DNA from: a virus
Direction: 5' to 3' (one strand)
IMG/VR virus record: IMGVR_UViG_3300048583_000035
Location: 1 to 41,278 of that record
DNA: 41,278 nt
Under the pieces are notes generated by a model, which was not told the origin of the DNA, searched no databases, and was given only the letters and a program-made list of their open reading frames with translations. Shown one piece after another: positions 6,746-41,278 of this stretch. Position numbers and translations under genes: made by a program. The number at the start of each line of letters is the position of its first letter. Position 1 is the stretch's first letter.

Positions 6746-6845
6746 ATTGCCTCCAGATGAGAGTGACGAAAGTGCATGTCAGTTCTCATCCGTAAGGCGG
6801 GACGGTCGCCGAAAGAGCGGTGCCGGCATCTCGCCGGCTGGTCGG

Positions 6846-7775: not shown

Positions 7776-7805
7776 CGGCGCCTTTCAGGGCTGTGCGGTG
7801 CCGGG

Positions 7806-7835
7806 ATTATAGGGATTGTGTTCAAAGTTTTGCAA
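7806..7835 (-). promoter_or_regulatory. sigma70-like promoter upstream of scaffold/coat genes
   Basis: The minus strand reads TTGCAA-18 nt-TATAAT (perfect -10) in a low-GC 96-bp gap, about 30 nt upstream of the scaffold ATG. Confidence 0.45.
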
Positions 7836-7871
7836 TGGTAGAGGCTGCAACCGTGCGGATTGATTGAACGG

Positions 7872-8255
7872 CTAGGCTTCCATCCTGCGCGCAAACTCGG
7901 CCATTAGTTCCTGCGCGATGCACTGAATCGCGTATGCCTCTTGCTCTCTCCCGGGCTCTCGCTCTCCGATGTCGATGCAGTAGCTTTGCCAGACATGCAC
8001 GGCCTCGTGGACCAGCAAGCCGGCAACCTCGACAGGCTTTTTGCCTTGCCAGTTCTTCAAGCAAACGATGCAAACCGTAGTGCCGTCTTCGTTCTCCAGG
8101 GTGTGCATCGTGGCGTCGGCGAACTTGCCGACGCCGGGGAATCGGTCCTTGTGCCCGATGTGCCTCAAGGCCGCGTGGAACTCTTCATCGCTCAGGCACA
8201 GAGCCAGATAGGGGCCGGGCCTCGCAATCCTGCGGTCAAGCCATGCCGTCTTCAT
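7872..8255 (-). CDS. HExxH-motif protein (putative Zn-metallopeptidase), translationally coupled to portal
   Basis: 127 aa. Contains ..GLLVHEAVHVWQ.. plus a downstream ..EQEAYAIQ.. segment. Its ATG overlaps the portal stop (ATGA). Confidence 0.45.
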   Translation of the reverse strand: MKTAWLDRRIARPGPYLALCLSDEEFHAALRHIGHKDRFPGVGKFADATMHTLENEDGTTVCIVCLKNWQGKKPVEVAGLLVHEAVHVWQSYCIDIGEREPGREQEAYAIQCIAQELMAEFARRMEA

Positions 8256-10309: not shown

Positions 10310-10448
10310 GGCATCCCCTGTGCGGGCATGCGCTGCTGGCGGCGCGAAGACTCAGCGGGCCGATTGCGGCCGGACGGTGCGATTCTATCGACGCGGGGAG
10401 GGCTCCGGTTGCCCGGCACCGCTTGCGCGTGACCCTCGCGGCTGGATT

Positions 10449-11702: not shown

Positions 11703-11943
11703 CGATTACTTTCGACGTGTGCTCGCCGTTCGGGCCGGCGCCTTTGACCGTCATGGGAAGCGTCTTACCAACCAACGTAAGAAACGCCGAAGCCGTGCGC
11801 GGATCATTCGCGCGCTCGGTCAGATACTCCACGCCGCCCGCTTGATCCAGCGCGCCGAGAATCATGTCTTTGAGTTCGCGCGTGACTTTGCCGGGGCCTC
11901 GCTTGCCCTGATTCGGCTTCTTCTCCCCTTTCTTAAAAGTCAT
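11674..11943 (-). CDS. putative small terminase / DUF5681-like DNA-binding protein
   Basis: 89 aa with a basic N-terminus (FKKGEKKPNQGKRGPGK), immediately upstream of terL. Confidence 0.4.
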   Translation of the reverse strand: MTFKKGEKKPNQGKRGPGKVTRELKDMILGALDQAGGVEYLTERANDPRTASAFLTLVGKTLPMTVKGAGPNGEHTSKVIVEFVARSGS

Positions 11944-12161
11944 GGCTTACCCTCCTTCGCCTTTGCCCTGCGCGAATCCCGATCCCGCGCTTGCCCGACA
12001 TGCCATTGCCCGCAATGCCGGCACCGATACGCCTCGACAAAACAATCCCGCTCGTGATTTTGCCGCATACGCTTTGCTCTGTGCTCCGCTTGTCCGTGGC
12101 TGGAAAACGCCTTCTTGCCGGTGCAGCCGGGTTTGAACTCTGGCGCAGGGTCGAAGTTCAT
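11940..12161 (-). CDS. small basic Cys/His protein
   Basis: 73 aa containing ..CFVEAYRCRHCGQWH... Its ATG overlaps the VRR-NUC stop (ATGA). Confidence 0.5.
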   Translation of the reverse strand: MNFDPAPEFKPGCTGKKAFSSHGQAEHRAKRMRQNHERDCFVEAYRCRHCGQWHVGQARDRDSRRAKAKEGKP

Positions 12162-12526
12162 TGGGCGTCAATTGACACGCGCATCATTCCAGCGTACCCC
12201 TGCACGATCCTTGCAGCCGCCGTCCAGTCCCAGCAAATCACCACGCACCATCCTTCGCGCTGCAACGCATCGATGCGCTCGCGCTGCTGCTTTGACGGCC
12301 CGTTGTCGCCGTGCTTGAACTCGATTGCCAGCCCTACAAACCCACCGCGCGGACTGGGCCACACCCAATCGGGTACGCCCGGCCGCACGCCTTCAGCCTT
12401 GAGCTTGCTTGCCGTTGCCGGGTGCCGAAAGCCTCCGTTCGGCACCGCGTAGCTGGTGTCGATGCCTTCGATGCGCTGCATTTCTAGCCAACGCACGAAA
12501 GCGGCCTGTGTGTCGTGCTCGCTCAC
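12158..12526 (-). CDS. VRR-NUC domain nuclease
   Basis: 122 aa from GTG 12526 (GTGA overlap with the upstream ORF). ..SEHDTQAAFVRWL..VPNGG..GVPDWVWP..GLAIEFKHG..S..Q.. fits the PD-(D/E)xK VRR-NUC pattern. Confidence 0.65.
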   Translation of the reverse strand: MSEHDTQAAFVRWLEMQRIEGIDTSYAVPNGGFRHPATASKLKAEGVRPGVPDWVWPSPRGGFVGLAIEFKHGDNGPSKQQRERIDALQREGWCVVICWDWTAAARIVQGYAGMMRVSIDAQ

Positions 12527-12780
12527 CAAACCCCCGGATTCGGCCGCACCACCGGCTCCGGCTTCGGCTCCGGCAGCATGTGCAGCGTCGTGACGTTGAC
12601 GTACCGCACGCACAGCGCGGTTCCGCCGCCGAGCGTGGCAACGGTGAAATCCGCCAGCGTCGCGCCTTGCTTCTGCAGCGACGCCAGCGCGCGAGCGCAG
12701 CGGCTGCGCACCGCACAGCCCCGGCTCGGCTCGCATCGCGGCTCGCTGTCCGGCAGTCGAATTGCGTCTGATCTGCTCAT
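12523..12780 (-). CDS. hypothetical Cys-containing protein
   Basis: 85 aa. ATG 12780 lies 1 nt after the PAPS-reductase-like stop, and its own TGA overlaps the GTG of the VRR-NUC gene. GC3 is high throughout. This is the internal start of track ORF 12523..12921. Confidence 0.5.
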   Translation of the reverse strand: MSRSDAIRLPDSEPRCEPSRGCAVRSRCARALASLQKQGATLADFTVATLGGGTALCVRYVNVTTLHMLPEPKPEPVVRPNPGVW

Positions 12781-12781
12781 G

Positions 12782-13642
12782 TCAATCTCCGCAGAAGCAT
12801 GCGATGGCTTCTTCGTTGTCGTGGCCGAATGCGTCGATCTGATTCGCGGCAGCCTGCGCCATGCCGGCGTAGCTGTCGCGGTCCATCCGAAAGCGCCACG
12901 CGCCGCCGCTCTTGCGTTCAACGAAATTGGCTGCGGCGTAATCCTCCTGCTTCACCCACCACACAGAACGGCTCGGGCGCTCTGCGATCAGGCTGCGCAC
13001 TTGGCTGGCAGGCTTCAGGAAACAAAGCACGCAATTTCCTGCCGTGGTGCGGCCGTTGCGACTCGGCAATTCCAGGTCGAAATCCTGCGCAGCCCAAAAG
13101 GCGCCAACGTCCGCAACTGAAATGCCAGCATCTGCCAACGGCAGCGCTCGCCAGCCTCTGCCACGGCCGCCCTTCGGGTCGGCGCGCATCTTCGCCACGC
13201 GGCGCGGCTCGTCAGCACGAACACCGACAAAGCTGTCCCAGTCCTCCCAACCAATGGCGCGAAGGTGGCGCTCCATCGTCAGGATCTTCAATTCCACGGT
13301 GCAGAAGCGGGCCACCGGGTTCGGCAGGTATCGCCGCTTGCGGATGATGGCCTCGAACGGCTCTCCGTTGCGGCTGGCCGTGTCGAAGTCCACAAGCGCG
13401 TAGCCCTGCGCATCGTCGCGGTACTCCACCCAGGTAATGGGCACGCCCCATTGCATCCCGCATTCGCGCACAAAGCGCAGCGTGGCCTCATCCTCCAAGC
13501 CGGTGTTGGCGAAGCAAACAACCGCGTCGGCCGGCAATCCGGTGTTGGCCTGCAGCACGCGCCACAGCATGTAGCCGCTTGTCCGGCCGCCGCTGAAACT
13601 AATGCACGTCGGGCCGGTGATCTTGAACGGGTCGTGGCTCAT
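12782..13642 (-). CDS. PAPS-reductase-like PP-loop protein
   Basis: 286 aa from ATG 13642 (ATGA overlap with the upstream stop). PP-loop ..CISFSGGRTSGYML.. near the N-terminus and a C-terminal Cys pair ..IACFCGD. Confidence 0.7.
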   Translation of the reverse strand: MSHDPFKITGPTCISFSGGRTSGYMLWRVLQANTGLPADAVVCFANTGLEDEATLRFVRECGMQWGVPITWVEYRDDAQGYALVDFDTASRNGEPFEAIIRKRRYLPNPVARFCTVELKILTMERHLRAIGWEDWDSFVGVRADEPRRVAKMRADPKGGRGRGWRALPLADAGISVADVGAFWAAQDFDLELPSRNGRTTAGNCVLCFLKPASQVRSLIAERPSRSVWWVKQEDYAAANFVERKSGGAWRFRMDRDSYAGMAQAAANQIDAFGHDNEEAIACFCGD

Positions 13643-13827
13643 GCCTGCACCTTCTTCGCTTCCTTCGCTTGCACACACACGGCGCACCGCCAGCCGATCT
13701 GCGTCCGCTTGCGGCCCAGCGTTGCGCGCGGCAGTTCGCAGTCGCAGCAGCGGAAAGTCACGTTTGACACCGTGCCGACGTTGCGCCATGCCGGCTCGAA
13801 TCGCGGCGTTCTGTCGTCGCTGCTCAT
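13639..13827 (-). CDS. small zinc-ribbon protein
   Basis: 62 aa from ATG 13827 (ATGA overlap). Contains ..CCDCE..(16)..CAVC... Confidence 0.5.
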   Translation of the reverse strand: MSSDDRTPRFEPAWRNVGTVSNVTFRCCDCELPRATLGRKRTQIGWRCAVCVQAKEAKKVQA

Positions 13828-19689: not shown

Positions 19690-19718
19690 TTGACCGCAAG
19701 TTAACCCGGCGATAAGAT
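19690..19718 (+). promoter_or_regulatory. PL-like promoter for the plus-strand early-left operon
   Basis: TTGACC-17 nt-TAAGAT lies in the 134-bp gap between the repressor gene and the first early-left ORF. Confidence 0.45.
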
Positions 19719-22297: not shown

Positions 22298-22708
22298 ATG
22301 ACCGCTGTAGCAGCATCAAGCGTTCGCATCCGCAGCATGGCAGATGGCACGCTTCGCGCCGAAATTGATTTCGAGCCGCGCGACGCTGCTGCAGCGTTTG
22401 CCATGCTTGGACAGCCCGGCCAGCCCATCGCTGTGGCGCCGCTCAAGACGGCAGCGCAACAACAGGCGCAGGAGGCGGCGCCAAAGGCCGCAGGCGGGCC
22501 GCTGGCGAAGCTGGCGGGGCAGTGGTGCCAGATGCCGCAGTTCCTCGCGTGGAGCGGCTGCAACACGGCTGACGCCGCCGCAGAGTTCATCCGGCGCGAG
22601 TGCGGCATCAGCAGCCGCGCCGAGCTTGACCACAACGCGGCAGCGGCTGCAGCGTTCCACACGCACATCCGCGAGCCGTTTTCAACGTACATGAAGGGCA
22701 CAGGATGA
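22298..22708 (+). CDS. hypothetical early protein
   Basis: 136 aa containing ..WCQMPQFLAWSGC..AAEFIRRECGISSRAELD... Confidence 0.5.
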   Translation: MTAVAASSVRIRSMADGTLRAEIDFEPRDAAAAFAMLGQPGQPIAVAPLKTAAQQQAQEAAPKAAGGPLAKLAGQWCQMPQFLAWSGCNTADAAAEFIRRECGISSRAELDHNAAAAAAFHTHIREPFSTYMKGTG

Positions 22709-23202
22709 CATCGCTTCTACTCATCGCTCAGGAATACCGGGCAGCAGCGGCGCAGCTTGCCGACCTCGACCTCCCGGCAGAAGTCGTCTCCGACACGCTG
22801 GAGAGCCTGGCCGGCGACATTGAAACCAAAGCGCAGAGCGTGGCGCACATGGTCCGCAGCTTGGAAGCGCAAGCCGCCGCCGTGAAGCAGTGGGCGAAGG
22901 ACGCCAGCGAGCGCGCGAAGGCCATCGAAGCACGCGCCGAACGGCTGCGCGAGTACCTGAGCAGCAACATGCAGGCATGCGGCATTCAGCGCATCGAAGG
23001 ACCGGGCATCACGCTGAGCTTTCGCAAGACGAGCGCCGTCGTGATCGATGACGAAGCGCAGATTCCGGCAGCGTACATGCGGCAGAAGCCGCCGCCGCCT
23101 GCGGAGCCGGACAAGCTGGCGCTGGCCGCTGCGCTGAAGACCGGCGAGACGATCCCGGGCGCGCGGCTGGAAACGCGGCAGGCGCTGCAGGTGCGGGCTT
23201 GA
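22705..23202 (+). CDS. Siphovirus Gp157-like protein
   Basis: 165 aa. Coiled-coil N-terminal half and a characteristic C-terminus ..EPDKLALAAALKTGETIPGARLETRQALQVRA. Confidence 0.6.
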   Translation: MTSLLLIAQEYRAAAAQLADLDLPAEVVSDTLESLAGDIETKAQSVAHMVRSLEAQAAAVKQWAKDASERAKAIEARAERLREYLSSNMQACGIQRIEGPGITLSFRKTSAVVIDDEAQIPAAYMRQKPPPPAEPDKLALAAALKTGETIPGARLETRQALQVRA

Positions 23203-23300
23203 ACGCAACAGCTAACCTGGACCCGACAGCATGAGCAACGATTCACGAAGCGAGACCCCGGCGCATGCTGTCGGGGCTCAGGTTCAGCGAGGGGTTAGGC
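23198..23300 (-). repeat. attC-like site S1 (array-distal boundary; left box degenerate)
   Basis: Plus strand: CTTGAAC-GCAACA-GCT-AACCTG-GACCCGACAGCATG(30-nt loop)CATGCTGTCGGGGC-T-CAGGTT-C-AGC-GAGGG-GTTAGGC. The left box overlaps the TGA of the Gp157-like gene. Confidence 0.65.
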
Positions 23301-23302
23301 GC

Positions 23303-23578
23303 GTGGTGTGCGCAGCCCTGCGAGCTACAGACGGCCGGCTACTGCTGGGAATACGGCACTACAGCCAAGACATGCACGACCAACTGGCGCAACGTGCTGA
23401 CCGCGACCGCTTCCTGCTGCGGCTAGACCCGAACCAGGGCTTCGTTGACCAGCACGGCGTGTACATGACGCGGGAGGAAGCCTACCGAGTTGCCGAAGCG
23501 GCTGGGCAGATTGCCTACCCGGAGCGTTGCGGACGTGGCCTTGAAGGGCCGAAGCTTTACAGCGAAGGACTGTACTGA
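23303..23578 (+). CDS. hypothetical protein (cassette 1)
   Basis: 91 aa from GTG 23303, 8 nt after the GAGGGG of S1. The alternative ATG 23231 lies inside the S1 stem. Sequence ..VVCAALRATDGRLLLGIRHYS..GFVDQHGVYMTREEAYRVAEAAGQI..LYSEGLY. Confidence 0.55.
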   Translation: MVCAALRATDGRLLLGIRHYSQDMHDQLAQRADRDRFLLRLDPNQGFVDQHGVYMTREEAYRVAEAAGQIAYPERCGRGLEGPKLYSEGLY

Positions 23579-23585
23579 TGCAAGC

Positions 23586-23670
23586 GCCTAACGTAAAGCT
23601 AACCGGCGCCTGCACGGCGCCGTGAGTAGCACCCTTGCCGGAGGGCGTCCGGTTCAGCGAAATGTTAGGC
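23586..23670 (-). repeat. attC-like site S2
   Basis: Plus strand: GCCTAAC-GTAAA-GCT-AACCGG-CGCC..(branched loop)..GGCG-T-CCGGTT-C-AGC-GAAAT-GTTAGGC. Confidence 0.75.
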
Positions 23671-23688
23671 GCGTGGTGCCGGAGCGAG

Positions 23689-24012
23689 ATGATGACTGAA
23701 GACCAAGTACGCGAGATGGTGAAGGAGTGTGGCCTTGACTGGCAGCGCGGGTACATGCCGATGTTTGATGGCGATCCAACGAACCGCTATGCGGCGCTGG
23801 TCAACGCCGCGCGAACGAACGCCCTGCAAGACGCCGCCCGCTGGGTGGACGAAGAAGTGGGCCACGCCGTGCAAGATGGCTGGAGCGTTGAAGCGGTGCA
23901 GGCCCTGATGGCGACGCGGGACATGCTCCGGGCGCACGCCGACATGAATGCGACGACCGTTGAGGTAATCCCAAGCGCCGATACGCCAACTTGGCGCGAC
24001 GGTGTGCGTTGA
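23689..24012 (+). CDS. hypothetical protein (cassette 2)
   Basis: 107 aa, with GGAG 5 nt upstream of ATG 23689. MMTEDQVREMVKECGLDWQRGY... Confidence 0.6.
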   Translation: MMTEDQVREMVKECGLDWQRGYMPMFDGDPTNRYAALVNAARTNALQDAARWVDEEVGHAVQDGWSVEAVQALMATRDMLRAHADMNATTVEVIPSADTPTWRDGVR

Positions 24013-24014
24013 GG

Positions 24015-24072
24015 GCCTAACGTTGCAATTAAGCGGCTGCCGTAGGCGGTCCGCTTGAATTGCTTGTTAGGG
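24015..24072 (-). repeat. attC-like site S3 (58 bp)
   Basis: Plus strand: GCCTAAC-GTTGC-AATT-AAGCGG-CTGCC(GTA)GGCGG-T-CCGCTT-G-AATT-GCTT-GTTAGGG. The bulges are T24050 and G24057. Confidence 0.85.
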
Positions 24073-24097
24073 CGCTGGTGGAGAAACGGGACGAACT

Positions 24098-24760
24098 ATG
24101 CACGCCACATGCCGCTGGTGCGGACACGCTGAACGAGAGCACGACCGGCAGTATGGGTGCGGCGAGTGCGATTGCGAACACTTTGAAAGGGAAAGAACGA
24201 TGAGCATGGACCATGTGCAACTAGCCCGCGCGCTGTGGGTGTGGTTTGGCTACCGCATTGACGAGAGCAGCGAGCCAGGCGCAGACCCGCGCGTTGACGC
24301 GCTCGCCGAGAAACTGGAAGAGTGGATTCCGGCCTTGCCCTACGAGCCGCTACACAGTGACCAGATTGAGCGCATTGCGCTTGAGTTGGGATGGGACCTT
24401 GACCAAGGGCGCGTAGGCGGCGACCTTGACACTTTTGCGCGCTACGTCGAGCAGGCGCACGGCATTTGCATTACCAACATGGCCGGAGGTGGCAAGGCCG
24501 ACCGCTACGTGAGCCACAACAAGAAAGTGGGGAACATTGGGCCTGCCAACCTGCCGCGCCTAGAAGTGGACGCGGCACACTGCCGGCGCATGGCATGCGG
24601 CGTGCAGGAATGGATGGCGCAGGGCTCAAACCCGGACGAGATGCCGAAGCCGCAGATTGCCGCGCTGGCGTTGCTGGTGAAGGAGCTTTGCACCGAAGTC
24701 CGACGCCTAGGCGAAGACAACACAACGCCGATGCAGCCGCATGCGCACGGGTTGATGTGA
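24098..24760 (+). CDS. hypothetical protein with N-terminal CxxC..CxxC motif (cassette 3)
   Basis: 220 aa starting MHATCRWCGHAEREHDRQYGCGECDCEHF... An in-frame alternative start is ATG 24200, preceded by AAGGGA. Confidence 0.55.
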   Translation: MHATCRWCGHAEREHDRQYGCGECDCEHFERERTMSMDHVQLARALWVWFGYRIDESSEPGADPRVDALAEKLEEWIPALPYEPLHSDQIERIALELGWDLDQGRVGGDLDTFARYVEQAHGICITNMAGGGKADRYVSHNKKVGNIGPANLPRLEVDAAHCRRMACGVQEWMAQGSNPDEMPKPQIAALALLVKELCTEVRRLGEDNTTPMQPHAHGLM

Positions 24761-24767
24761 GCGAGCG

Positions 24768-24866
24768 CCCTAACGGTCGAAGTGGGCCGGAGACCCGGCC
24801 AAAAGGAACGTGATGACTGAGCAAACGACGGAAGCCGGGGCTCTCGGCTCGACTGAGGGGTTAGGC
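24768..24866 (-). repeat. attC-like site S4 (long loop carries SD and ATG of cassette 4 ORF)
   Basis: Plus strand: CCCTAAC-GGTCGA-AGT-GGGCCG-GAG-A-CCCGGC(34-nt loop)GCCGGG-G-CTC-T-CGGCTC-G-ACT-GAGGG-GTTAGGC. The loop contains AAGGAA and ATG 24813. Confidence 0.75.
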
Positions 24867-25133
24867 CTGGAGCCGGAGCGCGCAGCGTTTGAGCGCTGGT
24901 ACGCCACGACTGACGCGCGCTGGTGGAACACAAGCGATGCGGCATTTGCGGCGTGGCGCGCGGCCGTGGCGGCAGAGCGCGAGCGGTGCGCCGTCGCCGC
25001 TTGGAGCCACTACATGGACATTTGCAAGAAGCGCGGGCTACCTGCCGCAATGTTTGATGATTGGTGCGCAGCAGGGGCCATACGCGGGCCTAACGTGGGA
25101 GTTAAGCCGCAGACACCGGCCGCGCCGACGTAA
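24813..25133 (+). CDS. hypothetical protein (cassette 4)
   Basis: 106 aa. The start lies in the S4 loop, and no in-frame start exists for 100 nt after the S4 right box. The ORF reads through the S5 left box (CCT AAC) and stops in the S5 loop. Confidence 0.6.
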   Translation: MTEQTTEAGALGSTEGLGLEPERAAFERWYATTDARWWNTSDAAFAAWRAAVAAERERCAVAAWSHYMDICKKRGLPAAMFDDWCAAGAIRGPNVGVKPQTPAAPT

Positions 25134-25188
25134 CCACACACACAAATGCTGGCAGCCGGTGGCTGTCGGCTTGAACGACTAGTTAGGG
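25088..25188 (-). repeat. attC-like site S5
   Basis: Plus strand: GCCTAAC-GTGGGA-GTT-AAGCCG-CAGAC..(loop)..GGCTG-T-CGGCTT-G-AAC-GACTA-GTTAGGG. The minus strand contains GTTCAAGCCGAC and CGGCTTAACTC. Confidence 0.85.
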
Positions 25189-25214
25189 CTCAGCGCCCGC
25201 CACAGGAGTGAACC

Positions 25215-25502
25215 ATGTACGTGATTGCAACCGAAAGCCGCCGCAAAGACGAAGTGCTGTTTATGGTGGACCGGAACCGCCAGCGCGCCAGCTTTTGGAG
25301 CAACCGCCTTAACGACGCCATGAAGTACGGCGACAAGTCTGCGGCCCAGCAGAAAGCTACAAAGCTGCGATTCAACCGGCCGCGCGTGCTGACGCTTCAA
25401 GACGCTGCGCGCATTGCTGGCGAGCAGGCACGCGAGCATGAGCATGAGCAAGCGATGGCCGACGATGAGGCCGGATGGGATGGGCACAAGGGGCATTTCT
25501 GA
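25215..25502 (+). CDS. hypothetical protein (cassette 5)
   Basis: 95 aa with a GGAG SD. MYVIATESRRKDEVLFMVDRNRQRASFW... Confidence 0.6.
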   Translation: MYVIATESRRKDEVLFMVDRNRQRASFWSNRLNDAMKYGDKSAAQQKATKLRFNRPRVLTLQDAARIAGEQAREHEHEQAMADDEAGWDGHKGHF

Positions 25503-25503
25503 G

Positions 25504-25561
25504 CCCTAACGCCCGAGTTCACGCGGCGCCGTAGGCGCTCGCGTGGAACGAAGTGTTAGGC
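25504..25561 (-). repeat. attC-like site S6 (58 bp)
   Basis: Plus strand: CCCTAAC-GCCCGA-GTTC-ACGCG-GCGCC(GTA)GGCGC-T-CGCGT-G-GAAC-GAAGT-GTTAGGC. Confidence 0.85.
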
Positions 25562-25591
25562 ATCACTTTTACCGAAGCGAAGGGAGCGACG

Positions 25592-25906
25592 ATGGACATT
25601 GACACTGCAGACCATGTGCTGCACGGCCCGAGCGGCGAAACCTGGGTGGTGGCCTACGTTGAAGGCGACCGGCTGGCTTGGTGCGGGTGGCCCGAAGGCG
25701 AGGCAAAGCTGGCCGATTGCACGCTGCTGAAGAAGGCCACTACCGAGCAGCGTGACAAGCTGCTGCTGGAGATGGCCGATTGCACGAACGACCGTCGCGG
25801 AAGGTATGCGCGGCAGCGCCTTGATTTGAACGACTGCCCGCGAACAAGCCGGTTAAACATGGACAGGGACCGGATGTGGGCAGAGCACGGCATCCCTGGC
25901 GCGTGA
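25592..25906 (+). CDS. hypothetical protein (cassette 6)
   Basis: 104 aa from ATG 25592, preceded by AGGGAG. MDIDTADHVLHGPSGETWVVAYVEGDRLAWCGWPEGE... Confidence 0.6.
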   Translation: MDIDTADHVLHGPSGETWVVAYVEGDRLAWCGWPEGEAKLADCTLLKKATTEQRDKLLLEMADCTNDRRGRYARQRLDLNDCPRTSRLNMDRDRMWAEHGIPGA

Positions 25907-25907
25907 T

Positions 25908-25965
25908 GCCTAACGGCCAAGCTCACCTGCCGCCGCAGGCGGTCAGGTGCAGCGAGGGGTTAGGC
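25908..25965 (-). repeat. attC-like site S7 (58 bp)
   Basis: Plus strand: GCCTAAC-GGCCAA-GCT-CACCTG-CCGCC(GCA)GGCGG-T-CAGGTG-C-AGC-GAGGG-GTTAGGC. Confidence 0.85.
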
Positions 25966-25984
25966 CCCAACTTGGAGAACTGAA

Positions 25985-26317
25985 ATGACGGTGATGAGCA
26001 ACGAAGACACGGCGCTGCCGGAGACGACCGAAGACGAGGCTTGGTACGACGCCGAGATTGCCCCGGCGCTGGCCGCGCTTGCGAAGCGGTGCCACGAGCG
26101 CGGGATGTCGTTTATTGCAGCGGTGGAGTACCAGCCCGGCGACCGGGCGGGCACCTACTACCTGACGCAAGACGCCGGAACTGCTATGCGCATGCTGCAC
26201 CTGTGCGCGCAGACCGTGCCAAACGTGGACGGCTACATCATGAGCCTACGCAAGTGGGCCGATGCCAACGGTGTGGACACCGGCGGCAGCTTTGTGATGC
26301 GGCGCCTTGGGGCCTAA
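25985..26317 (+). CDS. hypothetical protein (cassette 7)
   Basis: 110 aa with a GGAG SD. The stop codon is the TAA inside the S8 left box (GCC TAA C). Confidence 0.6.
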   Translation: MTVMSNEDTALPETTEDEAWYDAEIAPALAALAKRCHERGMSFIAAVEYQPGDRAGTYYLTQDAGTAMRMLHLCAQTVPNVDGYIMSLRKWADANGVDTGGSFVMRRLGA

Positions 26318-26380
26318 CGTTGCCGGTAACCGGCCCGTTGCGGCTTGCCGCAATGGGTCCGGTTGACTGGCGTGTTAGGC
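26312..26380 (-). repeat. attC-like site S8
   Basis: Plus strand: GCCTAAC-GTTGCC-GGT-AACCGG-CCCGTTGCGG(CTTG)CCGCAATGGG-T-CCGGTT-G-ACT-GGCGT-GTTAGGC. Confidence 0.85.
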
Positions 26381-26406
26381 AGCACTGTTGAACAACGAGG
26401 AAACGT

Positions 26407-26760
26407 ATGAGCAACCACACACCAGGGCCTTGGCATACAGCGACTGCTGACGAATGGCGCACTGCCAGCGGCGAGCATGCGCAGTGGGGCCGCTTTGACA
26501 TCAGCGCCGGCAGCAACGACCAGGCCGCAGAGAACTACTACCGCGTGGCCAGCGTGAGCAACGTGAACAACTCGGACCAGAACCTGGCCAATGCGAAGCT
26601 GATTGGGGCCGCGCCTGACCTACTGATGGCGCTGCGGGAGATTGCCGCCGACTACGCCGACCGATTTGACATGGACAGCCCGAGCACAAACCCCGGCATG
26701 AAGTACGTGGTGCAGCAGGCACGCGAGGCTATCGCGAAGGCGACGGGTTGTGCTGCCTAA
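26407..26760 (+). CDS. conserved hypothetical phage protein (cassette 8)
   Basis: 117 aa with a GAGGA SD. ..HTPGPWH..NLANAKLIGAAPDLLMALREI... The stop is the TAA inside the S9 left box. Confidence 0.6.
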   Translation: MSNHTPGPWHTATADEWRTASGEHAQWGRFDISAGSNDQAAENYYRVASVSNVNNSDQNLANAKLIGAAPDLLMALREIAADYADRFDMDSPSTNPGMKYVVQQAREAIAKATGCAA

Positions 26761-26812
26761 CGTTCGTATTGAGCCGCAGCCGTAGGCTGTCGGCTCGAAT
26801 ACGGGGTTAGGG
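26755..26812 (-). repeat. attC-like site S9 (58 bp)
   Basis: Plus strand: GCCTAAC-GTTCGT-ATT-GAGCCG-CAGCC(GTA)GGCTG-T-CGGCTC-G-AAT-ACGGG-GTTAGGG. Confidence 0.85.
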
Positions 26813-26858
26813 CGCTGATGCCGGAGCGCGATCATGTTTGCGTGTTACAAAATAGTTG

Positions 26859-26886
26859 TTGACGCTGGCGGTTGCTGTGCTACAGT
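26859..26886 (+). promoter_or_regulatory. sigma70-like promoter inside cassette 9
   Basis: TTGACG-16 nt-TACAGT. The transcript would begin at the 22-nt leader that is shared with the promoter at 30494. Confidence 0.55.
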
Positions 26887-26891
26887 AACCA

Positions 26892-26913
26892 CATCGCAAC
26901 ACGCAACCCGGAG
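26892..26913 (+). repeat. 22-nt leader repeat, copy 1 (CATCGCAACACGCAACCCGGAG)
   Basis: Identical to 30528..30549. It ends in the GGAG Shine-Dalgarno sequence and contains the internal direct repeat CGCAAC-A-CGCAAC. Confidence 0.9.
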
Positions 26914-26919
26914 AGACAA

Positions 26920-27063
26920 ATGCAAACCACCTACTGGAACGGAGACCTGGCCCGCTACACCGGCAAGACCATGACATTGCACGGCGGGTTGTTCTACGAA
27001 ATCGAACTGCTTGAAGGCCACCTGAAGGGCCAAACCAAAGTCACGCAACGCGCCCCCAAGTAA
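26920..27063 (+). CDS. small hypothetical protein (cassette 9, gene 1)
   Basis: 47 aa: MQTTYWNGDLARYTGKTMTLHGGLFYEIELLEGHLKGQTKVTQRAPK. The ATG is 6 nt after the leader GGAG. Confidence 0.5.
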   Translation: MQTTYWNGDLARYTGKTMTLHGGLFYEIELLEGHLKGQTKVTQRAPK

Positions 27064-27075
27064 AGGAGACTTGAC

Positions 27076-27294
27076 ATGCACACCTTCCAAGTTGTTACCC
27101 GCGAAGTCCAACATGCCGGTCGTCAAATCACTGCTGACGTTGTGCGCAACGATGGGCGTGTCGTTCGCTCTGGCATGTGGCCCGACTATGCCGAGGCCGA
27201 CTGCGCACTGCTGAACGAGTATTGCGCTGGAGGCTGGACTGCTGCGCAGTACCACGCCGAGCGTGCTGTGCGTATGGCGTCTCTGCGCAAATGA
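27076..27294 (+). CDS. hypothetical protein (cassette 9, gene 2)
   Basis: 72 aa with an AAGGAG SD. Confidence 0.55.
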   Translation: MHTFQVVTREVQHAGRQITADVVRNDGRVVRSGMWPDYAEADCALLNEYCAGGWTAAQYHAERAVRMASLRK

Positions 27295-27476
27295 GCGCCG
27301 ACAAGAACAAAGGGGGGCGACCCCCGGCCCCGCCCGGCCTGCGCCGGGTAAACGTCCCGCTTCGCCTGCCCGAGTGGCTGGTGCAGTGGATGGCAGAGCA
27401 GGCCGAGACGCCTGCGGAGTTGATCGAAGCCGCACTGCTGAAGGCGCACAAGCTGCGCCCGCCGCGTGCGCCCTAA
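27291..27476 (+). CDS. ribbon-helix-helix-like small DNA-binding protein (cassette 9, gene 3)
   Basis: 61 aa with an ATGA overlap. ..KGGRPPAPPGLRRVNVPLRLPEWLVQWMAEQA..AELIEAALLKA... The stop is the TAA in the S10 left box. Confidence 0.5.
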   Translation: MSADKNKGGRPPAPPGLRRVNVPLRLPEWLVQWMAEQAETPAELIEAALLKAHKLRPPRAP

Positions 27477-27528
27477 CGTTCGAGCTAACTTGCCGCCGTA
27501 GGCGGTCAAGTTGAGCGAGGGGTTGTGC
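27471..27528 (-). repeat. attC-like site S10 (58 bp; variant right box GTTGTGC)
   Basis: Plus strand: CCCTAAC-GTTCGA-GCT-AACTTG-CCGCC(GTA)GGCGG-T-CAAGTT-G-AGC-GAGGG-GTTGTGC. Confidence 0.85.
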
Positions 27529-27563
27529 TTCACCCATCCGAAGCGCGCAACTGTAGGAACTAC

Positions 27564-27785
27564 ATGATTCTTGAAATGATGCCAACGCTGCTGATGCGCG
27601 CGTTCCATGTGCCAGAGGTGGTTGTGGACTGCGGGAAGCCCGACGACTTTGAAGGCACCGCCTGCGCCGCGTTTCTGATGTGGCGCATGGAGTACCCGGA
27701 CTACAGCGCGAAGCTGCGTATTCCTGAGCAGCCAGAGGCCGAGAAGGCGCTGAACCGGGCACTCTTCCGTAGGCGTGCCGCGTGA
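27564..27785 (+). CDS. hypothetical protein (cassette 10)
   Basis: 73 aa from ATG 27564, preceded by AGGAA. MILEMMPTLLMRAFHVPEVVVDCGKPDDFEG... Confidence 0.55.
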   Translation: MILEMMPTLLMRAFHVPEVVVDCGKPDDFEGTACAAFLMWRMEYPDYSAKLRIPEQPEAEKALNRALFRRRAA

Positions 27786-27786
27786 A

Positions 27787-27879
27787 GCACAACGCAGAAG
27801 TAACCGGCTTCGGCCGAGCGGAGGATCGATGACCAACGAACGTACGCCGGCCGAAGTCCGGTTGACTGCCGGGTTAGGC
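27787..27879 (-). repeat. attC-like site S11 (variant left box GCACAAC; loop carries SD and ATG)
   Basis: Plus strand: GCACAAC-GCAGA-AGT-AACCGG-CTTCGGCCG(31-nt loop)CGGCCGAAG-T-CCGGTT-G-ACT-GCCGG-GTTAGGC. The loop contains GGAGGA and ATG 27829. Confidence 0.8.
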
Positions 27880-28128
27880 CCGCTGCCCGAGCCAGCCGCA
27901 GAAGCGGTGATGGACTTATGCGCCGACCACCAAGGGCCAGTAGAGGCATGGCAGTACCTGCCGGCCGACGCGATGCTCTACACCGCGAACCAGATGCGCA
28001 GCTATGCCGCCGCAGAGATGGTGCGTGCAGTTTCCGCAGAGCGTGCGCGCTGGACAGAAGCGGTGATGGCCGAGCTTGACGGCAACGGCCAGGCGCACGC
28101 CATCGTGGACTATGCGACAAGGGCCTAA
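27829..28128 (+). CDS. hypothetical protein (cassette 11)
   Basis: 99 aa from the loop ATG (an alternative ATG 27910 lies after the site). The stop is the TAA in the S12 left box. Confidence 0.55.
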   Translation: MTNERTPAEVRLTAGLGPLPEPAAEAVMDLCADHQGPVEAWQYLPADAMLYTANQMRSYAAAEMVRAVSAERARWTEAVMAELDGNGQAHAIVDYATRA

Positions 28129-28218
28129 CGACGAAGCTGAACGGGAGCCCACGCATGACCAAGCCTGAAAACGCACCCGCCGCTGCCGTGGGCTCTCCGT
28201 TCGAGCGCCCTGTTGGGC
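28123..28218 (-). repeat. attC-like site S12 (variant right box GTTGGGC; loop carries ATG)
   Basis: Plus strand: GCCTAAC-GACGAA-GCT-GAACGG-GAGCCC(39-nt loop with ATG 28155)GGGCTC-T-CCGTTC-G-AGC-GCCCT-GTTGGGC. Confidence 0.8.
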
Positions 28219-28544
28219 GGCCGGTGCCGGAGCGCGTGACCTTGGCGTGCCTGCTGGTGCAGCAAAACTTCAAGCCCGGCGACCAGGCGCCACAAGGCTA
28301 CTTGGCGTGGCACGAGTGGGCCGAGGTGCAGCACAAGGCCGGGTTGCGGCAGAAGCAGTGCGGCCGGTGCGGGCTGTGGCGCTACCCGCAGCAGTTGAGC
28401 GCAGAGGTTGACCGCGCCGAGCTTGTGATGACGAAGAAGCGCAAGTCGCGGCGCGTGACGGTGGAGACGCCGGTCTGCAACGACTGCCACAAGCCGCCCA
28501 ACGTGGGAGCTAAGTTGGAGACAACGGCGCCCGCACAGAACTGA
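28155..28544 (+). CDS. zinc-ribbon protein (cassette 12)
   Basis: 129 aa containing ..CGRCGLWRYP..(28)..CNDC... It starts in the S12 loop and stops in the S13 loop after reading through the left box GCCCAAC. Confidence 0.6.
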   Translation: MTKPENAPAAAVGSPFERPVGRPVPERVTLACLLVQQNFKPGDQAPQGYLAWHEWAEVQHKAGLRQKQCGRCGLWRYPQQLSAEVDRAELVMTKKRKSRRVTVETPVCNDCHKPPNVGAKLETTAPAQN

Positions 28545-28603
28545 CCGGAGCATGACGGCGCAGATGGGCGCCGTTGGCTCTCAACTTGAGCGACAGGTTA
28601 GGC
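28496..28603 (-). repeat. attC-like site S13 (variant left box GCCCAAC)
   Basis: Plus strand: GCCCAAC-GTGGGA-GCT-AAGTTG-GAGACAACGGCGCCC(33-nt loop)GGGCGCCGTTGGCTC-T-CAACTT-G-AGC-GACAG-GTTAGGC. Confidence 0.8.
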
Positions 28604-28630
28604 CACGCTGTGGCCGAAGCGAGGTAAAGC

Positions 28631-28852
28631 ATGAGAAGCACACGATCTAACCTGATGGCGATTGCAGCAATCGCGGCGATGGGCGCGGGGCTGGCGCAGG
28701 CGGCAATGCCGGCGCCGCGCAAGGGCAGTAACCGTGACTACAAGCCCACGCCACCGCGCTGCGACACAGCGCTGGCGCGCGAAATTGCCGAGCACAACGA
28801 AGCCGTCGAGCGCCGCAAGGCTGAAAAGAAGGCGCGGAAGCTGGCGCGCTGA
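28631..28852 (+). CDS. small secreted basic protein (cassette 13)
   Basis: 73 aa with a GAGG SD. Signal-peptide-like MRSTRSNLMAIAAIAAMGAGLAQA. Confidence 0.6.
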   Translation: MRSTRSNLMAIAAIAAMGAGLAQAAMPAPRKGSNRDYKPTPPRCDTALAREIAEHNEAVERRKAEKKARKLAR

Positions 28853-28860
28853 ATTGCGTG

Positions 28861-28911
28861 GCCTAACGTGTTTTAGGCCACACCATCGGAAACTCTGCAC
28901 AAGTTTTAGGC
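28861..28911 (-). other. attI-like simple site plus a direct-repeat copy (int-proximal end of the array)
   Basis: The minus strand reads GGCCTAAAACACG|TTAGGCC (plus 28861-28879). This compares with the recalled class-1 attI1 core GCCCTAAAACAAAG|TTAGGC. GTTTTAGGC recurs 33 bp away (28870-28878 and 28903-28911). No L stem or bulges are present here. Confidence 0.6.
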
Positions 28912-28913
28912 AC

Positions 28914-29198
28914 ATGCGAAGCTACTACGCCCCATCGACGCGCCACAACGGCAGCGAACGCAGCGACATCCTGAGCCGCGAGCGCGAGCCGTACACGCGA
29001 CCGCTACCGTACATCGGTCGGCTGTTGATCGCGCTGCCGGGCTACAGCATTGATTGGACGCTGCGGCAGGACATGCGCGACATGCGGCGCTTCTATGCGC
29101 TCGGCGCAGATGGCGAGCGGCTGGCCCATGCCGCGCCGAAGGAGTTGCTGCGCAGCGTTGCGCTGCTGGTGCCGCGCTACAGCGTGGCGGAGGATTGA
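28914..29198 (+). CDS. hypothetical protein between the attI-like site and xis
   Basis: 94 aa: MRSYYAPSTRHNGSERSDILSREREPYTRPLPYIG... The ATG abuts the second GTTTTAGGC repeat. Confidence 0.5.
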   Translation: MRSYYAPSTRHNGSERSDILSREREPYTRPLPYIGRLLIALPGYSIDWTLRQDMRDMRRFYALGADGERLAHAAPKELLRSVALLVPRYSVAED

Positions 29199-29201
29199 GC
29201 G

Positions 29202-29408
29202 TTGAAGCAAGACGAAGAAAAGTACATCCCGCTACTTGAGTGGGGCGCTAGGCGTTACGGCTCGCTTGCGTCTGAGTACACGCTGCGCCAGTGGGCGAAG
29301 AGTGGCGAGATATATCCGCCGCCGCAGAAGGTCGGCAATCGATGGGCTGTGCTGCCGACTGCGCAGCGGATAGTAGATGGCAGGCTTCCGCTGGTGTCGC
29401 GGCTGTGA
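29202..29408 (+). CDS. xis: excisionase, lambda Xis-like
   Basis: TTG 29202 lies 7 nt after GGAGGA. ..YIPLLEWGARRYGSLASEYTLRQWAKSGEIYPPPQKVG.. parallels recalled lambda Xis MYLTLQEWNARQRRPRSLETVRRWVRECRIFPPPVKDG. Confidence 0.7.
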   Translation: MKQDEEKYIPLLEWGARRYGSLASEYTLRQWAKSGEIYPPPQKVGNRWAVLPTAQRIVDGRLPLVSRL

Positions 29409-30466
29409 ACGCAGCCCGTCGCCAGCGCAGCCGCAGCACCTGGCCGCGCGGAATGATGGAACCGCGCCCCGGGTACTACGCCTGGCGCCATCCAGACGGC
29501 CGAACGTTTGCAATCGGCCGCGTGCCGCTGTCGCACGCAATCGCCGAGGCCGCCGCTGCGAATGCGCACCTCGAAAGCCTGAAGCCGGGCCTAGTCGAGC
29601 GGCTGACCGGCGCAGACCGCACCGTGGCCGACCTGCTCGGCAAGATGGACCCGGCCCGCACGCCGAACACTGCAAAGAGCATGCGCAGCCTGGACAAGAT
29701 CATCACCGCCGCAATCGGCACCGTGCCATGCGGGCAGTTGACCGTGCGCCAGTGCGCCGACTTGATCGAAAGCATCCGCGAAGCTGGCAAGGAGCGCAGC
29801 GCGCAGGCCGTGCGCTCGCGCCTAGTGTCGGCGTGCAAGCTGGGCGGCGAACTCGGCTGGATGGAGAGCAACCCGGCCGCCATGACGCGCGCCCGCAAGG
29901 TGACAACGAAGCGCGGCCGGCTGACGCTGGAAACGTTCCGCGCGATCTACGCGAAGGCTGGCGAGGTCGCAGAGTGGCTACCGCACGCAATGATGCTGGC
30001 GCTGGTGACCGGCGCAGACCGCGTGACGATCACGCGCATGACGCGGGACATGGTGGCCGATGGGCACCTGACGTACCGGCGCAGCAAGACGGGCGCCGCT
30101 GTGGCCGTGCCGCTGCGGCTGCGGCTGGATGCTGTGGGCGTGACGCTGGATGAGCTTGTGCGGCCGAAGACGGGCGTCGTGAGCCGGTATCTGGTGCACC
30201 ACGTCAACCCGCACGGCAACGCGCCTGCGGGGAGCGCGGTGTTTCCGGATCGCGTGTCGAAGGCGTTCACGGCTGCGCGCAAGTTGGCTGGGTTGCCGGA
30301 CGAGGGCGCGGGGACTTTTCACGAGCTGCGGTCGCTGTCGAAACGCTTGTATGACCAGCAGGGCGGAGTAGACACCAGAGCCCTCCTCGGTCACAAGACG
30401 CAGAAGATGGCCGACATGTATGCCGACCCGCGAGGCATAGAGGCGATCCGGGTGCGGGTGGCATGA
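29405..30466 (+). CDS. int: tyrosine integrase, lambda Int family (arm-binding N-terminus)
   Basis: 353 aa from GTG 29405 (GTGA overlap with xis). ..RPGYYAWRHPDGRTFAIG.. and ..TFHELRSLSKRLY..ALLGHKTQKMADMYADPRG.. align with recalled lambda Int (..NGYYCYRDPRTGKEFGLG.. and ..TFHELRSLSARLY..HLLGHKSDTMASQYRDDRG). Confidence 0.85.
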   Translation: MNAARRQRSRSTWPRGMMEPRPGYYAWRHPDGRTFAIGRVPLSHAIAEAAAANAHLESLKPGLVERLTGADRTVADLLGKMDPARTPNTAKSMRSLDKIITAAIGTVPCGQLTVRQCADLIESIREAGKERSAQAVRSRLVSACKLGGELGWMESNPAAMTRARKVTTKRGRLTLETFRAIYAKAGEVAEWLPHAMMLALVTGADRVTITRMTRDMVADGHLTYRRSKTGAAVAVPLRLRLDAVGVTLDELVRPKTGVVSRYLVHHVNPHGNAPAGSAVFPDRVSKAFTAARKLAGLPDEGAGTFHELRSLSKRLYDQQGGVDTRALLGHKTQKMADMYADPRGIEAIRVRVA

Positions 30467-30493
30467 GCGCAGATGTAACAGTGCAAATAGTGC

Positions 30494-30522
30494 TTGCGTG
30501 AGTGCTCACGATGCCCTAGAGT
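30494..30522 (+). promoter_or_regulatory. sigma70-like promoter downstream of int
   Basis: TTGCGT-17 nt-TAGAGT, followed by the same 22-nt leader as the promoter at 26859. Confidence 0.55.
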
Positions 30523-30527
30523 ACATG

Positions 30528-30549
30528 CATCGCAACACGCAACCCGGAG
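30528..30549 (+). repeat. 22-nt leader repeat, copy 2
   Basis: CATCGCAACACGCAACCCGGAG, identical to 26892..26913. Confidence 0.9.
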
Positions 30550-30557
30550 CAAACAAC

Positions 30558-40856: not shown

Positions 40857-41278
40857 TCAATCCTCCGCAAAGACCAGCGCGCCGGCCGGGAAAAGTGGCG
40901 TCGAGAGCGCCGAAACGATGATCGGCGTGGTCAGTGCCGTCTTCCGCAGAATCTGCGACGTGCCGGGCGCGCAGGTCGCAACGTGCGTAATCGTCTGCGT
41001 GCCGACAAACGACACATTGCACTCCGGGAAGGTGATCTGCGCCGCGTTCTTGTAGGCGTTGCCTGAAGCGTTTGCGCTGTACGGGCTCAAGCCATCGCAA
41101 ATGGTCCAGCCGGCCACGTCACGCGACACCAGCACAAGCGCGTAGTCGTCATAAGTCGCTTCGTTCGTGCCGGGCGAGCCAGCCTCGCCGGGGTCCGCTG
41201 TGTAGAGGCGAACTTGCAGGTTCGCGCCGTAGCTGGGCATCGCCACAGCATTGGCCTCGAACTTCACGAAGTCGTTCT
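40857..41278 (-). CDS. 3' part of the junction-spanning virion structural protein gene (true start at 149)
   Basis: The frame ..DFVKFEANAVAMPSYGANLQV..LVFAED is open to the window end. Its upstream codons lie in 128-149 of the circle. Confidence 0.8.
   Translation of the reverse strand, partial: NDFVKFEANAVAMPSYGANLQVRLYTADPGEAGSPGTNEATYDDYALVLVSRDVAGWTICDGLSPYSANASGNAYKNAAQITFPECNVSFVGTQTITHVATCAPGTSQILRKTALTTPIIVSALSTPLFPAGALVFAED
41152..41278. repeat. terminal direct duplication, copy 2
   Basis: Identical to bases 1-127. Confidence 0.95.

Follow-up and report, generated by a model that had tools for sequence, protein, structure and literature searches.

The order of an open reading frame (ORF) followed by its attC site, read from the Pc promoter, is treated as a hallmark of the integron. 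Two departures from this order are familiar: reverse-oriented cassettes occur in sedentary chromosomal integrons as a minority among forward cassettes, and are typically of toxin-antitoxin (TA) type, and the 'inverted integrase' integrons of the Treponema denticola type have a flipped intI upstream of a normal forward array. In this work, we analyzed a viral DNA of 41,278 nucleotides (IMG/VR record IMGVR_UViG_3300048583_000035, whose whole length is referred to as the window), focusing on an array of attC-like sites and small ORFs in its early region. Our results indicate that this is very probably an integron-type array of 13 reversed cassettes with 15 ORFs, carried by a P22-like phage, in which the plus strand is the attC bottom strand; the same polarity, opposite to the hallmark order, extends to a whole family of phages on an otherwise canonical platform.

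Integron elements inside phage genomes have been reported before. Qi et al. (2023; PMC9892861) surveyed 10,705 genomes of phages, found 3 complete integrons, one In0 and 17 small clusters of attC sites lacking an integron integrase (CALINs), described them as typical or captured elements, with capture proposed for the Vibrio phages, and recombined some of the phage attC sites with IntI1. TA cassettes with their own promoters have been noted (PMC13108822), and anti-phage defence cassettes are stored in bacterial integrons (bioRxiv 10.1101/2024.07.02.601686, 10.1101/2024.07.02.601719). In the literature searched, which did not extend to subscription journals, there was no prior account of a uniformly reversed array or of the IntI-encoding phage and prophage lineage presented here; on reversed phage cassettes or phage families with IntI, these searches led to the survey of Qi et al. 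alone. Already known from phages are attC sites, CALINs and a few complete integrons.

The window resembles the elements of that survey (PMC9892861) in that attC sites, in some cases with intI, lie inside a phage genome, and it fits the CALIN class, but its 13 sites form a large array that belongs to the early operon, is reversed throughout and is shared by a phage lineage. On re-examination, Shewanella phage M16-3 and Vibrio phage p16 were canonical, with attC on the intI-sense strand and the cassette genes on the other. With canonical cassettes, as found in class 1 integrons and in the chromosomal integrons of soil and freshwater Proteobacteria, the array shares RYYYAAC/GTTRRRY boxes and L boxes, a pair of extrahelical bases confined to one arm, a loop that varies (58-108 nt here) and hybrid sites, and in its relatives intI and attI are placed relative to attC polarity as in canonical integrons. 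Unlike canonical cassettes, every ORF is on the attC bottom strand with attC upstream, and the ORFs run toward attI and intI; expression cannot come from Pc, and a cassette newly inserted at attI would end up distal to the promoter of the phage operon.

The familiar departures are also distinct from this arrangement. As in reversed chromosomal cassettes, each ORF is antisense relative to the top strand of attC and one cassette (c9) has its own promoter, but here 13/13 cassettes are reversed and all except c9 lack a promoter of their own. As in the 'inverted integrase' type, intI and the cassette ORFs of the relatives are transcribed in one direction; unlike that type, in relatives such as locus L066 (related loci carry L numbers) the attI abuts the 5' end of intI, the array lies upstream of intI with the cassettes running toward it, and it is the bottom strand of attC that has the sense of intI. 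Their position suggests that the cassette genes are early accessory genes like those in the ea regions of phages λ and P22, and they share with lambdoid and P22 ea and moron regions a place between gam and xis-int and the character of small, highly variable genes of unassigned function; homologous or illegitimate recombination is the usual explanation for the mosaicism there, whereas the gene boundaries here are site-specific recombination sites.

Structure and strand polarity of the sites

Eleven of the 13 copies of CCTAAC in the window and 11 of the 12 copies of GTTAGG are clustered between gam and xis-int, where these motifs pair into 13 hairpin sites (S1-S13) at 23198-28603, followed by a lone 5' box at 28861-28867. 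The original prediction had set the array at 24015-28603; the start has to be moved to 23198, with S1 and S2 lying upstream of 24015, and the lone box, the 14th 5' box, closes the array. All 13 sites have an AAC-terminated 5' box and a GTT-led 3' box, mostly GCCTAAC/GTTAGGC with variation at the outer positions, and each one, folded as DNA, displays an R-box helix, an internal loop and a long stem with two single-base bulges. Both bulges are on the 3' arm of the plus strand in 13/13 sites, the 5' arm having no counterpart in the model alignment; the loop-proximal unpaired base is always T, and the unpaired L-box base is G in 10 sites and C in the remaining three (S1, S2 and S7). The folds and the alignment therefore agree with the bulge placement that had been read from the letters. 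Compensatory changes were found at 10 of 13 L-stem pairs, and 86.8% of the cells were paired, versus 70.4% in shuffles, 0 of 500 of which reached the observed value; the stem signal was lost when the pairing partners were slid.

The strand was assigned with a covariance model, R1, built from the plus strand of 14 short phage sites, with 7 of the 13 window sites outside the training set. The window sites scored 32.6-73.7 bits on the plus strand (E 4e-7 to 1e-17), no minus-strand score exceeded 16.6 bits, and the scan of the 41 kb window gave no further hit with E<0.08. The closest deposited structural relatives, MW202475 and MW202867, served as negative control; the 0 attC hits obtained in their 74.5 kb indicate that the model is specific. 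R1 also matched eight canonical attC sites, at 36-50 bits (E 1e-7 to 1e-10), and only on the strand antisense to the gene: antisense versus gene-sense scores were 49.9 and 10.3 bits for aadA1, 47.2 and 8.5 for aacA4, and 46.2 and 9.9 for catB3, and the antisense strands of qacG2, catB8, fosI, OXA-2 and aac(6')-Il scored 44.7, 44.7, 41.6, 37.1 and 36.0 bits. These reciprocal matches identify the window sites as attC by sequence and structure, with the plus strand as the bottom strand; the covariance-model strand check proposed beforehand, run with R1, accordingly did not return the plus strand as a top strand.

The sites could instead be intergenic hairpins of the phage that are merely attC-like, with a role in RNA structure or attenuation, or akin to repetitive extragenic palindromes or miniature inverted-repeat transposable elements (REP/MITE-like). 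Such an origin would fit the Rfam scan of the window, which gave no match (Rfam holds no attC family), the lack of IntI in the window, and the presence of the same core between unrelated ORFs; furthermore, a core and its short leader with a Shine-Dalgarno (SD) sequence are kept as a unit, which could mean a role in translation or in the RNA. The S3 core with 28 nt of its downstream leader, for instance, is common to the window and L030. Against this, a model made from phage sites only finds class 1 attC sites at the E values given above, the R boxes are hybrids of just the kind seen in cassette arrays, related phages have a true IntI together with a conserved attI beside such arrays, and IntI-bearing relatives differ by precise single-cassette insertions or deletions (indels), so we consider simple hairpins very unlikely. 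The attC sites may nevertheless have an RNA-level role additional to recombination.

The bulge argument depends on the polarity of canonical attC sites, which had been taken from the aadA1 site. The 60-mer given for that site turned out to be exact, with 100% identity in the hits listed and at least 99% in 1962 plasmid records, and in R100 it lies in the aadA1 sense directly after the stop codon, as had been assumed. The minus-strand reading that had been quoted for S5 is likewise correct against the site at 25088-25188, and a sequence comparison with L001 showed the S5 arms to be near-identical to the aadA1 attC bottom strand. In seven class 1 attC sites with readable arms, read directly in the annotated gene orientation (aac(6')-Il, fosI, catB8, aacA4, qacG2, IMP-11 and IMP-26), the gene-sense strand had the extra L-box base on its 5' arm in 7/7 cases, which puts the bulge on the 3' arm of the bottom strand, as on the plus strand of the window.

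The coding strand was assessed with a codon model trained on long genes of the phage, which classified known genes of similar G+C content correctly on both strands in control runs. All 15 plus-strand ORFs had positive coding log-odds (0.12-0.34 per codon, compared with 0.22-0.35 in the training genes), and each of the 23 ORFs of 50 aa or more on the minus strand scored negative. Coding on the plus strand makes the ORFs antisense to the canonical cassette direction: 15/15 are on the bottom strand, and none is on the top strand with its attC downstream. Codon statistics and the R1 strand are thus in line with the original prediction that all 15 ORFs run opposite to the usual cassette direction and co-directional with xis-int. 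Taken together, four independent lines of evidence, namely the position of the extra base, the reciprocal R1 matches, the natural breakpoints and the platform geometry in relatives (the latter two are described below), support the assignment of the plus strand as attC bottom strand, which had been proposed from bulge polarity, and of the ORFs as antisense.

Cassette boundaries and crossover point

Within a site, the two boxes are perfectly complementary in 3/13 sites only, whereas the 3' box of each site and the 5' box that follows it across the ORF are perfectly complementary at 13/13 junctions, including the one with the terminal lone box. Variant boxes occur in complementary pairs as well: GTTAGGG/CCCTAAC (three times), GTTGTGC/GCACAAC and GTTGGGC/GCCCAAC. 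The same trend was observed in 13 other arrays, with complementarity across the ORF in 59/84 cases versus 19/95 within the site. Such an excess of complementarity across the ORF is the signature of recombination inside the box, with formation of hybrid sites. Box complementarity alone does not tell which box is cut, but natural variants do.

In three pairs of variants, nothing is exchanged up to and including the 5' box, and the core and everything downstream of it are replaced. The window and L004, a metagenomic contig encoding an identical Gam protein, are 99% identical over 740 nt and unrelated directly after ...GGGCTTGAAC|G, the first 5' box (CTTGAAC|G). L051 and L059 are 99.3% identical over 2379 nt and unrelated beyond ...GCCGAAC|G; the window and L003 have the ORF c9c in common, and their homology stops after ...CCCTAAC|G. 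L066 differs from L090 by a 336-nt unit at attI, present in L066 only, which is bounded by AAC and consists of a site core and a 90-aa ORF. In L093, a hybrid site joins the 5' box of site 3 of L092 to the core of site 4, and several further L092/L093 junctions are located at AAC|. Phages that differ by clean cassette indels are 96.5-99.99% identical in their flanks. Divergence at the AAC| of the 5' box places the crossover at AA|C on the bottom strand and makes the cassette an attC with its downstream ORF; the natural breakpoints and the fit of the ORFs agree with the earlier proposal of a cassette composed in this order and ending at CCTAA|C. As to this fit, the TAA of the following ...CCTAA|C serves as stop codon for four ORFs, and seven more end 1-9 nt ahead of the next box.

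If the plus strand were the top strand of ordinary attC sites, the bulge polarity having been misread, each cassette would be an ORF followed by its attC. The ORF ends lend themselves to this order too, as they abut the next 5' box or use its TAA, and many canonical cassette ORFs treat R'' in the same way; in addition, two homology boundaries begin at a 3' box. Nonetheless, this alternative, to which we give next to no credence, is already contradicted: R1 separates the strands by ~35-40 bits in the opposite sense, the extra base of canonical attC sites is on the other arm than a top-strand reading needs, at least nine natural breakpoints in near-identical relatives are at the AAC| of the 5' box, and the intI and attI of relatives are on the side predicted only by bottom-strand polarity. 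Moreover, in the long sites S4, S11 and S12 the SD sequence and the start codon of the downstream ORF are located within the loop of the upstream site.

Several observations weigh against a simple bottom-strand array in which every core travels with one ORF. The two homology boundaries at a 3' box (window 26804 with L003 7840, and L003 12456 with L047 14839) are both in a promoter-bearing module, described in the last section, at 86% identity, and this module was found behind four different cores. Identical cores, some with a short leader and SD sequence, are present beside ORFs that are unrelated on both sides, so a core is not strictly tied to one ORF; the S10 core, for example, is also in L004, with different boxes and ORFs. 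The ORF c4 overshoots the next crossover by 13 codons and ends in the S5 loop, and c12 likewise overshoots by 14 codons and ends in the S13 loop. Furthermore, the polarity test relied on our self-built R1 in place of the attC model of IntegronFinder/HattCI, and no integron integrase is encoded in the 41 kb of the window. The module behind several cores, the shared cores and the overrun of c4 and c12 suggest extra homologous recombination between similar sites and some decay; these misfits leave the polarity conclusion unaffected.

Integron integrases in related phages

When 84 loci related by their Gam protein were scanned, 44 of the 45 model hits were in the sense of the genes, with arrays in L003 (18 sites), L047, L054, L004 and others. 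When genome contigs were searched with the Gam protein, one distant locus was found, in a Methylibium metagenome-assembled genome (MAG) with little downstream DNA. The layout of L054 differs in that its attC array (6385-9330) is upstream of the gam homolog (10001-10495), the bottom strand still being gene-sense.

An integron integrase is encoded in L066: the protein matches TIGR02249 with 482 bits (cutoff 265), is 58% identical to IntI1 and contains the IntI-specific motif ALERKYPNAGKEWGWQYVF, and its gene starts ~80 bp downstream of the last box of the array. In IMG/VR, 60 loci have homologs of the L066 IntI (37-100% best-segment identity), many of them on contigs of 36-43 kb; complete integrons, with intI and attI beside the array, are thus found in L066 and these 60 loci, and the window has no such platform. 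The model gave 84 attC hits at the IntI loci; 83 have the same sense as intI, and almost all are located directly ahead of that gene. Of the 80 inter-site intervals, 78 have their best-coding ORF in the sense of intI as well, the other two scored too low to call, and no interval favours the minus strand. The spacer between array and intI is conserved (C TTAAATTCAACGACACC...ATGTCGCATAACTC...GGAG..ATG) and abuts variable RYYYAA, as expected of attI. To our knowledge, the coding strand of intI is in all cases the bottom strand of attC, and the location of attC on the intI-sense strand is therefore the canonical platform geometry. The order in these relatives is array, attI, intI, xis and int, with the same reversed cassette polarity as in the window.

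The same intI is present at the prophage end on two bacterial contigs of 99 and 141 kb (L156 and L158), in the order early genes, small ORFs, intI, small ORF, phage int and the host genes tig-clpP-clpX-lon (hupB). According to independent gene calls, all genes upstream of intI are co-directional except for one helix-turn-helix (HTH) regulator ~8.4 kb upstream in L158, and these genes are interspersed with attC hits of the same strand. By their source names, the IntI homolog proteins would come from Betaproteobacteria, including a Gallionellaceae MAG. The reversed layout throughout the related phages and prophages agrees with the idea, raised in the original prediction, of a distinct phage-adapted cassette pool.

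A captured fragment of a bacterial chromosomal integron, now fossil, could also leave such an array, with ORF co-orientation being accidental or secondary. Captured integron fragments are documented in phages (PMC9892861), the window has no intI, and in L152 the host genes thrS, infC and rplT stand beside intI. We regard this origin as unlikely, as array type, polarity and genome position recur across many related phages and prophages, clean cassette indels separate phages with near-identical flanks, three cassette ORFs belong to phage protein families, and all 13 sites are structurally intact with perfect box complementarity across the ORFs; besides, the phage integrons that had been reported before and were tested here are canonical, not reversed.

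In the window itself, the place held by intI in the relatives is taken by the gene K, followed by xis and int. The window Int was considered as a candidate IntI and rejected: it is lambda-type, gave no TIGR02249/NCBIfam integron-integrase hit and has no significant similarity to IntI1. With 13 attC sites and no intI in a 41 kb genome, the window is a CALIN, whose cassettes appear to have been assembled by IntI-type recombination and may still be mobile. Its array ends with the lone 5' box GCCTAAC and a conserved junction (GTGTTTTAGGCCACACC...AACTCTGCAC...; 28861-28913, plus strand). The terminal box is complementary to the 3' box of S13, and the junction is kept in L003, the only contig returned by an exact-pattern scan of IMG/VR. 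The junction resembles the attI of IntI-bearing relatives weakly, with 9/17 bases after the box and ACACC at the same offset, and there is a weak resemblance to attI1 (CCTAAAAC..GTTA, minus strand). These likenesses are too weak for a bona fide attI; tentatively, the junction is possibly an attI remnant. A short hairpin at 28858-28884, examined as a 14th full site, is the lone 5' box with the conserved junction.

Under this bottom-strand polarity, the mobile unit is C + attC core + GTTRRRY + (SD) + ORF + RYYYAA, with attC upstream of its own ORF and the crossover at AA|C of the plus-strand 5' box. In the mechanism we propose, the platform is canonical (IntI, attI, bottom-strand recombination) and set in a phage operon transcribed toward intI. 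The ORFs would most likely be expressed by read-through from the early-left promoter, in the direction of xis and int, and the integron Pc promoter could not drive them. The polarity of attC would fix the orientation of insertion at attI, so that only bottom-strand ORFs could be expressed from the phage early transcript, and this limitation would lead selection to maintain a phage-specific, mirror-image cassette pool. As the window phage has no IntI, gain or loss of cassettes would need IntI in trans, which might come from a related phage or prophage, from the host or from an ancestral form of the window phage. The data show the structure and polarity of the sites, the coding strand, the hybrid boxes, the crossover point in natural variants, and the IntI and attI of relatives; we infer that the early promoter transcribes the array, that induction regulates IntI, that the array is active at present, and what the cassette genes do.

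On balance, we favor a scenario in which a lineage of freshwater and soil Betaproteobacteria phages keeps its own integron with a mirror-image pool, shuffled by IntI on induction or infection, the window phage having lost intI. If so, the early accessory region of this lineage is an integron array and a possible counterpart to the bacterial banks of anti-phage cassettes, and such a phage-borne, phage-expressed pool is an obvious place to seek counter-defence genes. It would also offer a testable mechanism for the mosaicism of early accessory regions in temperate phages, namely site-specific single-strand recombination by IntI. An opposite polarity across the family implies that the association of ORF and attC is not mechanistically fixed, but set by the source of transcription, and it is relevant to the unsettled matter of how cassettes arise. 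In addition, annotation pipelines that assume forward cassettes would mis-describe reversed arrays.

Three further observations were made on these relatives. The integration of L156 and L158 next to tig-clpP-clpX-lon-hupB provides a handle for finding culturable hosts. In L101, three attC-model hits are downstream of intI (10001-11023), at 11610-12651 and on the same strand, and one is upstream. The deposited phage genome of Virus Rctr41k (KX853513; L150, 4680-8545) has a gene that is annotated as xerD but is IntI-like, with 47.6% identity to the IntI of L066; co-directional genes follow it, with weak attC-model hits on the opposite strand; this layout may be of the Treponema-like 'inverted integrase' type.

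Genes and sites along the window

The window is a complete temperate phage genome of ~41.15 kb, P22-like, in which bases 1-127 are an identical direct repeat of 41152-41278; this 127-bp terminal repeat indicates a circularly closed assembly. P22-like portal, coat, head-closure (Hc3), tailspike and ejection proteins are encoded on the minus strand. The plus strand carries the repressor and then the early operon, which runs from ~19.7 kb via a Mu-Gam-like gene to xis and a lambda-type int, with the attC array between the gam-like gene and K-xis-int. The early region had no match among deposited phages by megablast. Among the replication and late genes, the minus strand also holds a PAPS-reductase-like gene (phrog_424; 12782-13789), and a similar gene (Pfam PAPS_reduct) lies directly upstream of the array in the L158 prophage.

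A sigma-70-like promoter predicted by consensus scan (TTGACC-17-TAAGAT; 19690-19718, plus strand) stands ahead of the first early-left gene and is a candidate source of the transcript running through the array, within which a scan gave no convincing plus-strand terminator. The Mu Gam-like gene (22705-23202, plus strand; phrog_253, E 1.8e-41) is the last backbone gene ahead of the array, and its stop codon TGA falls within the first 5' box CTTGAAC (23198-23204). Beyond the array, and also on the plus strand, are K, a 94-aa ORF of unassigned function that is co-directional with the array (28914-29198), xis (29202-29408; phrog_629 excisionase) and the lambda-type int (about 29453-30466; phrog_7244 and phrog_1 integrase).

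The sites and cassettes are all on the plus strand, and are given here with their boxes, R1 scores and coding log-odds; cassette coordinates run from crossover to crossover. S1 (23198-23300, CTTGAAC/GTTAGGC, 32.6 bits), recovered as a fold as well, holds in its loop the ATG of c1 (115 aa, 23231-23578, +0.15), the ORF of cassette 23204-23591, which matches phrog_839 (E 2e-23). S2 (23586-23670, GCCTAAC/GTTAGGC) scored 47.0 bits on the plus strand and 16.6 on the minus strand, and precedes c2 (107 aa, 23689-24012, +0.26; cassette 23592-24020). S3 (24015-24072, GCCTAAC/GTTAGGG, 73.2 bits) is followed by c3 (24098-24760, +0.29; cassette 24021-24773), a 220-aa ORF with a Cys-rich N-terminus. S4 (24768-24866, CCCTAAC/GTTAGGC, 47.4 bits) holds the SD sequence and ATG of c4 (106 aa, 24813-25133, +0.16; cassette 24774-25093) in its loop. 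S5 (25088-25188, GCCTAAC/GTTAGGG, 52.1 bits) precedes c5 (95 aa, 25215-25502, +0.31; cassette 25094-25509), which matches phrog_29068 (E 2e-4), and S6 (25504-25561, CCCTAAC/GTTAGGC, 69.2 bits) precedes c6 (104 aa, 25592-25906, +0.28; cassette 25510-25913).

Further along, c7 (110 aa, 25985-26317, +0.30; cassette 25914-26317) follows S7 (25908-25965, GCCTAAC/GTTAGGC, 71.8 bits), and c8 (117 aa, 26407-26760, +0.30; cassette 26318-26760), a match to phrog_1273 (E 2e-16), follows S8 (26312-26380, GCCTAAC/GTTAGGC, 63.2 bits); the stop codon of both is the TAA of the next 5' box. S9 (26755-26812, GCCTAAC/GTTAGGG, 73.7 bits) heads cassette 9 (26761-27476), in which a promoter scan located a putative promoter of its own (TTGACG-16-TACAGT, 26859-26886) and which has three ORFs: c9a (26920-27063, +0.34), c9b (27076-27294, +0.12) and c9c (27291-27476, +0.22). 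S10 (27471-27528, CCCTAAC/GTTGTGC, 71.8 bits) precedes c10 (73 aa, 27564-27785, +0.22), whose cassette (27477-27792) has the variant boxes GTTGTGC...GCACAAC. S11 (27787-27879, GCACAAC/GTTAGGC, 38.9 bits) has the SD sequence and ATG of c11 (99 aa, 27829-28128, +0.19) in its loop, and the stop TAA of this ORF, in GCCTAA|C, is the end of its cassette (27793-28128). S12 (28123-28218, GCCTAAC/GTTGGGC, 50.3 bits) likewise contains in its loop the SD sequence and start of c12 (129 aa, 28155-28544, +0.18; cassette 28129-28501), and S13 (28496-28603, GCCCAAC/GTTAGGC, 44.8 bits) precedes c13 (73 aa, 28631-28852, +0.20), whose cassette (28502-28866) adjoins the terminal junction.

SD sequences are present ahead of most of these ORFs, and the PHROG matches are those given for c1, c5 and c8; Pfam and NCBIfam searches of the cassette proteins returned no function. 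In a tblastn search of all cassette proteins against ~150 related loci, homologs were found only for c9c, together with K and m3 outside the array. The c9c homologs are in the arrays of L003, L117 (2367-2543), L126 (7971-8123) and L110 (9735-9917). By eye, c9c resembles a ribbon-helix-helix protein, and in three IntI-bearing phages the cassette with its homolog opens with a sigma-70-like promoter right after attC; the c9c cassette may be of regulatory or TA type.

A promoter-like element with a shared leader (CATCGCAACACGCAACCCGGAG) heads a multi-gene module that occurs twice in the window, once in the array (c9a-c; 26859-26919) and once after int (m1-m4; 30467-30557), there without attC. Homologous modules are located inside arrays behind different attC cores, at 7850-7960 and 12484-12608 in L003 and at 14868-14979 in L047.

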